A stretch of DNA of 64,000 nucleotides from Candidatus Chazhemtobacterium aquaticus (GTDB lineage: Bacteria; Patescibacteriota; Microgenomatia; UBA1400; Chazhemtobacteraceae). Each line of letters begins with the position of its first letter. The first letter of the stretch is position 1. Position numbers and translations under genes: made by a program. The stretch spans positions 216,984 to 280,983 of the forward strand of contig NZ_CP047901.1 in the NCBI RefSeq assembly GCF_009936135.1. Reading direction: 5' to 3'. Below the pieces are notes generated by a model. The model saw only the letters and a list, made by a program, of their open reading frames with translations, had not been told where the DNA came from and did no database searches. This document shows, piece after piece, positions 11,156 to 13,672 of this stretch.

Positions 11156-13672
11156 ATGTCTCGCACTGTCCTCGAGATTCGAACCGCTAAAGACTCTAAA
11201 GAAACTCCTGAAGCTACTGTTCAGCTTCTATCAAGCCTATCGGGCACTTTAAGTACCAGTTTCTGGCAACGTTTCCAGAACAAACAACCAACCCTTTCTC
11301 TCGAAATTGCTAGCCTCAACCAACGTGTCTTTTTCATTGTTACCTGTGACTCTCAAACTGCCCCGCTAGTTAAAAGCCAGATCGCCGCCCAATATCCTAC
11401 GGCTGTTATCACCCCTACTCAAGACTACTTAGGTACCTGGTCTCGTTATGGTACCCAGTCTGCATCACAAATTACCTTAAGCGCACCCTATTATCTACCC
11501 ATAAAGATCTACTCAAAATTTACTGATACAGATCCGTTAGCTGCCCTTCTTGGAGTTCTTGGTAAAACTCAACCAGGTAGCGCCGCCATTATTCAAATCC
11601 TTCTTACTGCAGCTCCCTCCAACTGGGCGAGCACAGGCAAGAGCGTTATTCAAAAAGGAGTAAGTTCTGACCCGGAAACTTTCAAACCTCATCCCCAACA
11701 AGCCCTCATTGAAGAAAAACTTTCCACCAAAGCCTTTCACGTTGGCATTCGTCTCCTTGGTGTCAGCCCACAACATTCCCAAGCACAACTTCTGGTATCT
11801 CAGATGAGTAGTGCTCTCGGCACTTTTGCTTTATCTGAAGGTAACTCATTAGTCCCAACCAAAACTAGCTCAACCTCCAACCTCATTGCCTCCATGGTTG
11901 CTCGCGATCCCCGATTTTTACCCAAAAACCAATACCTCAATGTTCTTGAACTAGCTTCTTTGTATCATTTTCCTGGTGAAAGCCTCTCCGGACTTCGTAA
12001 CATCGCTTGGGGCAAAACCATTAAAGGCGAAGCTCCAGACAATCTTCCCACCAAAGACACTCTTGACCCCACCATCCTTAAAGACACCAATTTTTTTGCC
12101 CGCACCGAATACAAAAACCAACTAGCCGACTTTGGTATCAAGCTTCGAGACCGTCGTCGTCATTTCTATATCCTAGGTAAGTCTGGTACCGGAAAGTCAA
12201 CTCTCCTGGCTAATATGGCTATCTCCGATATGCATAATAATCAAGGTTTTGCCGTCATTGATCCTCACGGTGACCTGGTCGAGCAGACTCTACTTGATTA
12301 TGTCCCAGAGCATCGTCTCGCTGACATCGCCTATCTCGATCCAGCCGATGCTCAGCACCCATTTCACTTGAATCCTCTCGAGGTTAAGCGACCAGAGCAC
12401 AAAGAATTAGTTGCCTCGGGTATTGTCTCGATTTTTCAAAAAATCTTCCATTATTCCTGGGGTCCTCGTCTGGAATACATCCTAAGAAACACCCTTATGA
12501 CCCTAGTTGAAATAGAAGGATCAACCCTGCTTGACATTCCCAAATTACTCACCGACAAAAATTTCCGAACTCAACTTGTCACTCAGCTCAACCCCGAAAC
12601 CCACCAAGTCCTCATCGAGTTCTGGACTCGCGAGTTCGATCAATATGGTGACAAACTGAGAAACGAAGCCATTGCTCCCATCCTTAATAAAGTTGGCCAA
12701 TTCATTGGCAGCCCTACCATCCGCCAAATCTTAAAAAACCCCAAATCCAGTATCGATCTGGAATCAATGATGAATCAGGGTAAAATCGTCCTACTCAATC
12801 TATCCCAGGGTAGGCTAGGGGAGGATAACGCCACTTTGCTTGGCGCCATGTTTATTACCCAATTTCAACTAGCCGCCATGAACCGCATCAATATTCCTGA
12901 AGAACAACGCAAAGACTTCTTTCTCTACGTCGACGAGTTTCAAAACTTTGCTACCACCTCCTTTATAAAAATTCTTGCCGAAGCCAGGAAATACAGACTT
13001 GGTCTCATCCTTGCCAACCAATATACTGCCCAACTTCCTGAAGAAATCCAAAAAGCTATTTTTGGTAACGTTGGCACCATCGCCACCTTTGTCATGGGCG
13101 CAGATGACGCAACCAGTATCTCCAAAGAGTTTGGTGAACTCTATACCGTTGACGACCTAGTCAATCTTGGCAAGTTCCAAATCATTACCAAATTAAGTAT
13201 CGACGATCGCATCAGCAATCCCTTCCCTGCCTACACCCTCCCCTTACCAGATATCAAAAATCAAAACCGACCCCGAGTGCTCGAAGCATCCCACTCTCAA
13301 TACTCACAACCAGTCGATCTCACTCCCGTCTCAACTCCATCACCCAGTTTGCCTCATCCCATGCCTCAACCCCAGACGCAGTCAAACCCCACCTCGGACG
13401 CCAGACCACCCCTTGATCTGTCTCAGTTAGAACTCGGCAAGGTCTATTCCGGCATCGTCAAAAACATCAAAGACTACGGAGCATTCGTTGAAATTCTTCC
13501 TGGATACGAAGGCCTGGTTCATGTCAGTAACTTAAGCAAGTCTCACATTAAAAAACCTCAAGACTTGCTAAAAACCGGCGATCAAGTAAAGGTTAAGCTC
13601 TATGAAATTGATGATAAAAACAGGCTTAACCTAACCATGATTCTTGACCAGGAGCCATCAGCGACAAAATAA
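11156..13672 (+). CDS. FtsK/HerA/TraD(VirD4)-superfamily P-loop ATPase with a long N-terminal domain and a C-terminal S1 nucleic-acid-binding domain
   Basis: Walker A is GKSGTGKST and Walker B-like is [10 protein letters not shown]. The FtsK/TraD-like [19 protein letters not shown] segment is present. After a Pro-rich linker comes an S1 fold ([34 protein letters not shown]...[21 protein letters not shown]). Confidence 0.6.
   Translation: [838 protein letters not shown]

Follow-up and report, generated by a model that had tools for sequence, protein, structure and literature searches.

A soluble, coupling-protein-like ATPase with a C-terminal S1 domain in Candidatus Chazhemtobacterium aquaticus, with a possible role in RNA handling

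What does a motor of the kind that serves conjugation do in a stretch of housekeeping genes, and why does it end in an S1 domain? The question is raised by an open reading frame (ORF) in the 64,000-nucleotide (nt) stretch of Candidatus Chazhemtobacterium aquaticus DNA analysed here (contig NZ_CP047901.1, positions 216,984 to 280,983 of the forward strand; hereafter the window, by whose positions all coordinates are given). Its product is soluble, is encoded on the chromosome of a patescibacterium and belongs to the VirB4/VirD4 branch of FtsK-HerA P-loop translocases. Our leading, though tentative, reading is that it is a coupling-protein-derived translocase engaged in cytoplasmic RNA handling (RNA turnover or transcript clearing), for which no type IV secretion system (T4SS) would be required. 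Patescibacteria, which account for a large part of bacterial diversity and live in attachment to hosts, have kept T4SSs, and these are essential in the one species tested. The features of the gene, in amino acids (aa) and window coordinates, are as follows, T4CP standing for type IV coupling protein.

11089..11118, + strand: promoter-like site TACACA-18-TATAAT, 10/12 matches in a consensus scan, 38 nt 5' of the start codon; weak evidence, as promoter-like sites are no more numerous in the region than in shuffled sequence.
11156..13672, + strand: complete ORF; DUF8128, then T4CP-like ATPase, Pro-rich linker and S1.
11156..12025, + strand: N-terminal domain, aa 1-290, DUF8128/PF26449 (annotation of the identical protein P0001, structure model, Foldseek).
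12026..12085, + strand: inter-domain connector, aa 291-310, with an E-x-P-x-N-L-P motif (conserved columns, split junctions).
12086..13297, + strand: P-loop motor, aa 311-714 (Pfam PF10412, PF01935, PF02534 and PF12696; Foldseek; profile against PDB).
12176-12202, + strand, inside the motor: Walker A, GKSGTGKS.
12392-12778, + strand, inside the motor between Walker A and Walker B: all-alpha insert, aa 413-541.
Within 12926-12949, + strand, inside the motor: Walker B, LYVDEF.
12980-13036, + strand, inside the motor: conserved EARKYR...ANQY motif.
13298..13429, + strand: Pro/Ser/Gln-rich disordered linker, aa 715-758 (composition, model confidence).
13430..13648, + strand: S1 OB (oligonucleotide/oligosaccharide-binding)-fold domain, aa 759-831 (Pfam, NCBIfam and PDB matches, predicted barrel).

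The ORF runs from ATG to TAA and encodes 838 aa. Translation and Pfam bore out its extent, motifs and multi-part layout as given in a preliminary description made from the letters of the window: GKSGTGKST lies at aa 341-349, YVDEFQNF at aa 591-598, and the two remaining strings quoted there, of 19 and 34 residues, at aa 609-627 and 761-794. The full-length AlphaFold2 (AF2) model, computed from an alignment of 149 sequences, reached a predicted local distance difference test score (pLDDT) of 91.9, and disorder was limited to aa 727-749 and the final six residues. An artefact, from faulty assembly or from a stop overlooked where two genes meet, would be the trivial explanation of the S1 fusion, and it has practically no chance of being correct: the reading frame is unbroken down to the TAA, and the architecture recurs. 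An identical protein (P0001, with 36 member sequences) was recovered from another assembly, and the core+S1 layout is shared by 21 members of a 121-protein set, in which the window protein was joined by its 120 best homologues and every entry stands for a 90%-identity cluster. The 20 clusters other than that of the window protein come from independent contigs and sources, one of them lying on a syntenic 89-kb contig. We therefore rejected the artefact explanation.

The core places the protein among the P-loop translocases of the FtsK-HerA superfamily, and there with the TraD/TrwB/VirD4 kind. Pfam detected TrwB_AAD_bind (PF10412) at aa 324-661 with 35.1 bits (cutoff 20.5) and DUF87/HerA (PF01935) with 33.3 bits (cutoff 23.2), the DUF87 match spanning the shared P-loop region only, while T4SS-DNA_transf and TraG-D_C were barely over cutoff. 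Walker A (GKSGTGKS, aa 341-348) and Walker B (LYVDEF, aa 590-595) are invariant in 149 sequences, as are R611, K612, N621 and Q622, and in the AF2 model a helical, all-alpha insert (aa 413-541) lies between the two Walker motifs, as in TrwB. When the whole model was compared with the PDB by Foldseek, the matches were TrwK/VirB4, HerA, TrwB (target-normalised TM-score ~0.6), Cag-beta, DotL and the DndH C-domain, with E values of 1e-16 to 1e-11 for VirB4, HerA, TrwB, Cag-beta and DotL. A profile of 62 family members searched against PDB sequences was led by TrwB (1e-5) and DotL (4.5e-4), followed weakly by HerA proteins; VirB4/TrwK was absent among the matches of this search. Judged by sequence, the motor is closest to the T4CPs (TrwB/VirD4/DotL).

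These results uphold the P-loop translocase core of the preliminary description, with no grouping to an unrelated AAA+ family. The same description had called the protein an FtsK/HerA/TraD-like ATPase, of which the superfamily and the TraD/TrwB/VirD4 kind stand but an FtsK-like or HerA-like architecture does not. The FtsK/SpoIIIE profiles PF01580, PF09397 and PF13491 had no Pfam match in the protein, which has no gamma domain and no transmembrane segment (the highest 19-residue Kyte-Doolittle mean is 1.26). By Foldseek it has no HAS-barrel, the N-terminal domain being alpha/beta and matching VirB4, not HerA, and no NurA-type partner flanks the gene, whose adjoining genes encode SPFH and GroES proteins according to Pfam. 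Pfam gave no match to the VirB4 motor families either (P-loop_TraG, AAA_10, CagE_TrbE_VirB).

What, then, stands in front of the motor? The N-terminal part, initially put at about 330 aa and considered to be of unknown function, proved to be DUF8128 (PF26449, aa 1-290), with the fold of a VirB4 N-domain. The Pfam release scanned here predates PF26449 and left the N-terminus without a match; the assignment comes from precomputed annotation of the 100%-identical P0001 and of nearly all homologues. Modelled alone by AF2 (pLDDT 95.9, predicted TM-score 0.93), the domain forms two tandem beta-alpha-beta-beta-alpha-beta units. Its top 14 Foldseek matches in the PDB were all TrwK/VirB4 N-domains (probability 1.0, E 7e-7 to 1e-4, query-normalised TM-score (TMq) 0.47-0.53), and the ranks beyond these were filled by unrelated folds (oxidases). 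The VirB4 likeness is moderate. Against BFVD the best match was Bacillus phage G gp156 (TMq 0.76). DUF8128 is thus predicted, on the strength of the model, to have the VirB4 N-terminal-domain fold and to occupy the place of a coupling protein's membrane anchor. The protein as a whole is soluble and joins this VirB4-like domain to a coupling-protein-like motor. A literature search on DUF8128 and PF26449 found no papers.

The connector between the two parts has conserved columns at E292, P294, L297 and P298. In Parcubacteria-type relatives the gene is divided here into a DUF8128 ORF and an ATPase ORF, at a position equivalent to about 12040-12090 of the window. Such split loci number 14 (L039, L043, L045, L048, L050-L052, L063-L065, L070, L073, L078 and L080), and in 14/14 the two ORFs share the same reading frame and are separated by TAA or TAG. 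The spacer from the stop to the first in-frame ATG measures 3-51 nt and is always a multiple of 3; a shared frame in all 14 has a chance of ~3^-14 if the cases are independent. Thirteen junctions were translated, of which 7 carry one stop and 6 carry two or three. When read-through or recoding at the split site was considered, the multiple stops in 6/13 junctions made simple read-through unlikely.

At the other end of the protein, the S1 OB-fold that had been called clear from the sequence held up, with no indication of another fold. Pfam S1 (PF00575) matched aa 759-827 with 62.1 bits (cutoff 22, E 6.8e-17), or 66 bits for the isolated tail. The segment alone, searched against PDB sequences, matched bS1 domain 3 and the PNPase S1 domain (E 1e-38 to 1e-15) as well as 1sro; NCBIfam likewise matched it to the S1 segments of bS1 and PNPase, and AF2 predicted a five-strand barrel at aa 763-829 with a pLDDT of ~90. 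The Y/F-G-A-F, G-L-V-H and D-x-x-x-R positions are retained, and by comparison with the PNPase S1 domain these would map to the RNA-binding face. The C-terminal domain is a genuine, canonical S1 OB-fold. The linker before it was correctly described as Pro-rich (11 Pro in the 44 residues of aa 715-758) and is the sole long low-confidence stretch of the AF2 model, with pLDDT <50 at aa 727-749.

Is S1 the only tail that this motor carries? In the 121-protein set the tail was S1 in 20 proteins, S1 followed by NUDIX in one (P0006) and NUDIX in 54; the remaining 46 have another tail or none, and two of these tails are RGG-rich. A set of 62 species-level full-length proteins had S1 only in the window protein and in that of locus L027, and NUDIX in four. 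Most Microgenomates proteins stop ~20 aa past the core. In Saccharibacteria and other groups the tails run to 45-270 aa and contain no Pfam domain, and many of those in Saccharibacteria carry Arg/Lys-rich patches. S1 falls in two clades when the core region is used for a neighbour-joining tree, and proteins with NUDIX tails or without a tail are interspersed among them; the S1 domains of these two clades are ~49% identical, which is similar to their identity with E. coli bS1 domain 3 and would fit a single as well as a repeated gain of S1. The S1 tail is lineage-specific, being confined to a Collierbacteria-like clade of Microgenomates, a narrow part of the family. A survey of this point had been proposed in the preliminary description. 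In the NUDIX tails the Nudix box is intact, and their best NCBIfam matches, nearly end-to-end, are all RNA pyrophosphohydrolase (RppH). S1, RppH-like NUDIX and RGG are all RNA-associated, which is the chief reason to suggest that the tail, and perhaps the motor, works on RNA in this clade. Whereas one clade thus has RNA-binding and RNA-5'-end-processing modules, the homologue of a conjugative B. subtilis plasmid has a strongly acidic tail, of the kind with which TraD binds the relaxosome protein TraM. It had been proposed that the protein is a nucleic-acid machine recognising RNA or single-stranded DNA (ssDNA); the idea is plausible, and the alternative tails strengthen it.

Where does the family come from? 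The core family is not rare but widespread in Patescibacteria. At least 4,200 and at least 6,200 90%-identity clusters surround two queries, 10,032 50%-identity clusters were obtained at E<=1e-30, and the family occurs in at least 599 species genomes, among them Microgenomates, Saccharibacteria, Dojkabacteria, Peregrinibacteria and many Parcubacteria groups. Its members have already been flagged as orphan T4CP homologues (PMC12102498): 5,713 VirD4-type T4CP homologues came from 2,918 Patescibacteria genomes and only 148 had virB4 nearby, and for the unlinked ones exaptation was raised as a possibility and function called an open question; relaxases were found to be nearly absent from the phylum (PMC12102498).

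Searched by tblastn outside Patescibacteria, homologues turned up in 107 phage records, mainly of Bacillus, Listeria and Geobacillus, where they match phrog_5156, and also in 403 plasmid records; they are full-length, spanning aa 36-700 with 22-29% identity. On B. subtilis plasmids the homologue comes first, followed by a replication-relaxation protein, a conjugal transfer protein, TcpE and a VirB4-like ATPase; an Embleya plasmid has the order PrgI, VirB4-like ATPase, homologue, replication-relaxation protein, NlpC/P60. Since the plasmid homologues stand in the coupling-protein position of conjugation clusters, the family descends from the coupling ATPase of Gram-positive-type conjugation systems. 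On the Bacillus and Embleya plasmids the replication-relaxation gene always lies directly after the homologous ATPase (L083:9517-10404, L084:9212-10207, L085:8611-9951), and MOB-suite types these plasmids as non-mobilizable. The two genes may form an unrecognised pair of relaxase and coupling protein.

Two observations on the collected loci may be added. Five of them (L030, L031, L036, L047 and L050) contain a second full-length paralogue near the main copy or in tandem with it, and these paralogues share 31-35% identity with the window protein. Records of metagenome-assembled genomes for L001, L002, L004, L008, L010, L015, L027 and others are titled 'uncultured Pseudomonadales/Gammaproteobacteria bacterium'; as they carry the patescibacterial gene and synteny, they are probably mislabelled.

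Is the gene tied to a secretion system in Patescibacteria? The preliminary description had suggested looking for competence or conjugation neighbours. None of the 40 window ORFs scanned against Pfam (the target included) was recognised as encoding a T4SS component, a relaxase or a competence protein. Nearly all of those that could be annotated have housekeeping functions: LeuRS, MetRS, TsaD, VanW, a solute-binding protein, GroES/EL and TGT, and further an AddA-like helicase-nuclease, PcrA/UvrD, RmuC, MurJ, LepA, DnaK, NusA and cell-wall enzymes. Of the two neighbours initially noted, the SPFH/Band_7 protein at 10469-11098 was confirmed (92 bits), while the 'NTase-fold' protein at 9471-10337 is weak, with Polbeta at 19.8 and NTP_transf_2 at 17.4 bits, both under cutoff. 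When ORFs from 81 loci were clustered for comparison, SPFH and NTase-like genes adjoined the target only in its closest relatives (7-9/81 loci), and we rejected them as functional partners, this adjacency being clade-level housekeeping synteny. The GroES/EL genes on the other side likewise belong to a gene order kept in this clade alone. The second S1 clade, on the 89-kb contig, has the same order, TsaD-TsaE-VanW-SBP-x-YidC-SPFH-target-GroES-GroEL (SBP, solute-binding protein), and a housekeeping gene order common to both S1 clades points to vertical inheritance. As a detail of this region, L001, L002, L007, L032 and L086 have a YidC-like (60KD_IMP) gene between the 270-290-aa NTase-like and the SPFH genes; the window has only a 130-nt gap at this position (10337-10469), the gene having been lost or moved.

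A different context is seen in three Gottesmanbacteria-type loci, where a T4SS cluster lies next to the target in divergent orientation (L004:1675-7888, L005:1290-7724, L009:2162-7861). It comprises a PrgI/VirB3-like protein with CarboxypepD_reg, a 218-233-aa protein and a VirB4-like ATPase (P-loop_TraG + AAA_10), with a large M23 peptidase in L004 and L009; on the short contig L012 only an adjacent PrgI-like gene is visible. Such loci raise the possibility that the protein is the true coupling ATPase of the patescibacterial T4SS: its N-domain, taking over from a membrane anchor, would dock on the PrgI/VirB3-VirB4 platform, and the S1 tail would be a relaxase-free receptor for RNA or ssDNA on its way to or from the channel, one possible purpose being nucleic-acid traffic between epibiont and host. 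Besides the position of these clusters (partial in L012), the motor's closeness in sequence to T4CPs, the T4CP position of the non-patescibacterial homologues in conjugation clusters, the occurrence of T4CP homologues in 2,918 Patescibacteria genomes (PMC12102498) and a T4SS cluster without a recognisable coupling protein in S. epibionticum (PMC10633639) all speak for it. It has to contend, however, with the lack of a transmembrane anchor, with the location of >95% of patescibacterial copies away from virB4 and the near absence of relaxases (PMC12102498), with the 40 window ORFs, none of which is a T4SS component, and with the RppH-like tail, which fits secretion poorly.

Genetic data from S. 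epibionticum bear on the same point. SEML1_0293 has the Pfam content and the neighbours (SEML1_0294, a sigma-r4/HARE-HTH protein, and topA) of the family and is probably the orthologue of the window protein. In transposon sequencing (Tn-seq) it was scored non-essential at all three time points (Table S1 of PMC10633639), while SEML1_0294, FtsK and a second T4CP-like gene, SEML1_0142, were essential (PMC10633639), as were the T4SS genes (PMC12102498). A probable orthologue that is dispensable where the T4SS is not, and an essential SEML1_0142 that could be the real coupling protein, argue against coupling to the T4SS, and we regard that role, the main rival of RNA handling, as possible but rather unlikely. 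With an essential FtsK of its own in S. epibionticum, we also rejected the target as an FtsK replacement.

One neighbour recurs over a wider range. A ~350-aa Sigma70_r4 + HARE-HTH protein is encoded directly upstream on the same strand in 28/81 loci (e.g. L076:3008-4069, L060, L042, L050), and the pairing occurs in two wider contexts, dprA-topA in Saccharibacteria and secD-secF in Parcubacteria. This protein may be a functional partner of the ATPase; in the 64-kb window no such protein was detected when a hidden Markov model was run against ORFs and six-frame fragments. The Saccharibacteria order, dprA-topA-(sigma r4/HARE-HTH)-target, would suit a DNA motor of competence or recombination, in which the ring pulls in or processes ComEC-imported ssDNA, or migrates recombination intermediates, and S1 binds ssDNA. 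Saccharibacteria are naturally competent (PMC10633639). The DNA-motor explanation also draws on the FtsK-HerA-superfamily relatives, which act on DNA, and on the general ability of OB folds to bind ssDNA. Yet dprA-topA is a widespread housekeeping pair, and neither the Parcubacteria context (secD-secF-c1-target) nor the window contains it; bacterial S1 domains are found almost only in RNA-binding proteins, and RppH-like NUDIX and RGG tails are atypical of ssDNA handling. We consider a DNA motor of this kind improbable.

The housekeeping context also bears on defence. That the protein is the ATPase of a HerA-, DndH- or MADS mad8-like defence against phages or plasmids is suggested by a PADLOC match to mad8 (55 bits, aa 322-663), with HerA and DndH weak, and by the Foldseek matches to a defence HerA complex (8xaw) and to the DndH C-domain. 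All of these matches span the shared ATPase fold only, however, and the six proteins scanned on each side hold no defence-partner Pfam (nuclease, Sir2, methylase). Defence islands are variable, whereas this gene has a fixed place in a conserved housekeeping context across the clade and is widespread in the phylum. A defence role is very improbable, and a HerA-NurA-type or defence system was rejected on the N-domain fold and the housekeeping context.

How might the protein work? By analogy with its relatives, it would assemble as a ring, and ATP hydrolysis would move a nucleic-acid strand through or along that ring. One S1 domain per subunit, held by a disordered Pro-rich tether of ~45 residues, would allow avid capture of single-stranded nucleic acid, most likely RNA, at the motor. 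In Patescibacteria the gene is inherited vertically, usually unlinked from relaxase and T4SS genes, and in the Collierbacteria-like clade its tail has been fitted with RNA-directed S1, RppH-like NUDIX or RGG repeats. A cytoplasmic role in RNA handling is favoured because the tails are RNA-directed modules and the gene is unlinked from the T4SS; independence from the T4SS is suggested by the gene's location and by the Tn-seq result on the probable orthologue.

Several points weigh against this. No FtsK-HerA-superfamily motor is known to work on RNA, DNA being the substrate of its members, and S1 and RGG elements are able to bind ssDNA as well. We infer ring formation, substrate and direction of movement alike. 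Most family members have no recognisable tail domain, so that the tail evidence bears on one clade only, and the NUDIX tails, with scores of 28-44 bits, stay far under the RppH family cutoffs of 116-259. The gene does divergently adjoin a T4SS cluster in 4/81 loci, and docking of the VirB4-like N-domain on a T4SS platform could favour a T4SS-coupled role. Finally, SEML1_0293 is matched to the window protein by domain architecture and synteny, not by sequence comparison.

A bolder version of RNA handling would make this the first RNA-directed motor of the FtsK-HerA/T4CP lineage: a domesticated conjugation ATPase that grips transcripts via S1, RGG or Arg-rich tails, while in sister lineages the RppH-like tail removes the 5' pyrophosphate. 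We advance this as a speculation that is rather unlikely to hold. Such a motor could act in cytoplasmic RNA decay or strip RNA or RNA polymerase from DNA, which would fit the recurrent Sigma70_r4/HARE-HTH pairing and the fact that S. epibionticum has no annotated Rho; or it could act at the T4SS, moving RNA between epibiont and host. If true, it would widen the substrate range of FtsK/HerA/VirD4 translocases, and would point either to a new factor that turns over RNA or clears transcripts in a lineage poor in Rho, or to the passage of RNA through a T4SS. The tails are the first concrete clue to the role of the abundant unlinked coupling-protein homologues, and the VirB4-like fold of DUF8128 bears on the origin of VirD4-type coupling proteins from VirB4. 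Should the protein be only a tethered DNA motor, the analysis would still provide useful annotation for a very large uncharacterised family.

Some observations concern the window at large. An Rfam and tRNA scan yielded tRNA-Cys alone, and three ORFs of 524, 365 and 586 aa (24371-25945, 45042-46139 and 46120-47880, all on the - strand) had no Pfam family at E<=1e-4. Strand composition is extremely biased: GC skew lies between -0.25 and -0.52 in nearly every 2-kb segment, irrespective of gene orientation; counted on the coding strand, third codon positions have a skew of -0.52 in '+' genes and +0.58 in '-' genes, and several related Microgenomates loci show skews of -0.3 to -0.42 (L022-L025, L027, L029). 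Between the ATPase gene and groES (13717-13777), a near-consensus promoter-like TTGACA-17-TAAAAT is followed by a perfect palindrome, CGAGTGA-TAA-TCACTCG. The half-sites of the CIRCE heat-shock operator, GAGTG/CACTC, are present in this palindrome, but their order is inverted and their spacing differs.

How does the protein compare with known systems? With T4CPs (VirD4/TrwB/TraD/DotL) it shares the nucleotide-binding fold, the all-alpha insert between Walker A and B, and a long variable C-terminal tail such as that of TraD. T4CPs have an N-terminal transmembrane anchor, whereas the target has a 290-aa VirB4-like globular domain; they are encoded with relaxase and T4SS genes, whereas the target is chromosomal, vertically inherited and, in the window, unlinked from these; and where their tail is acidic and binds a partner, that of the target ends in S1. 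VirB4/TrwK/TraC is built alike, with an alpha/beta domain at the N-terminus and the motor at the C-terminus, and has a length similar to the ~720-aa core of the target, and TrwK chains are the best Foldseek matches of the whole model. A true patescibacterial VirB4 (L004, L005, L009), however, matches the VirB4 Pfam families, unlike the target, and virB4 lies beside VirB3/PrgI genes, a place that the target does not have in the window. The orphan patescibacterial T4CP homologues (PMC12102498), including SEML1_0293 (PMC10633639), almost certainly belong to the same family, sharing Pfam content, annotation strings and, in Saccharibacteria, the topA/sigma-r4-HARE-HTH neighbourhood; we found no description of the VirB4-like N-domain, the natural ORF split or the S1/NUDIX/RGG tails in the literature searched. 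The DUF87/DUF8128 ATPases of Gram-positive plasmids and Bacillus phages (phrog_5156, phage G gp156, the B. subtilis 'DUF87 domain-containing protein') have the same N-domain and motor. They differ in residing on mobile elements, the plasmid ones beside replication-relaxation and T4SS genes, and in that transmembrane segments occur in some of them; acidity marks the single plasmid tail that was examined, and S1 sequence was seen in 0/4 tails examined. The rings of Rho (RecA-type) and PNPase (RNase PH-type) are both unrelated to the target motor, and the likeness here is a functional analogy only: in Rho, PNPase, RNase R and the exosome, an OB or S1 fold captures single-stranded RNA for a ring enzyme.

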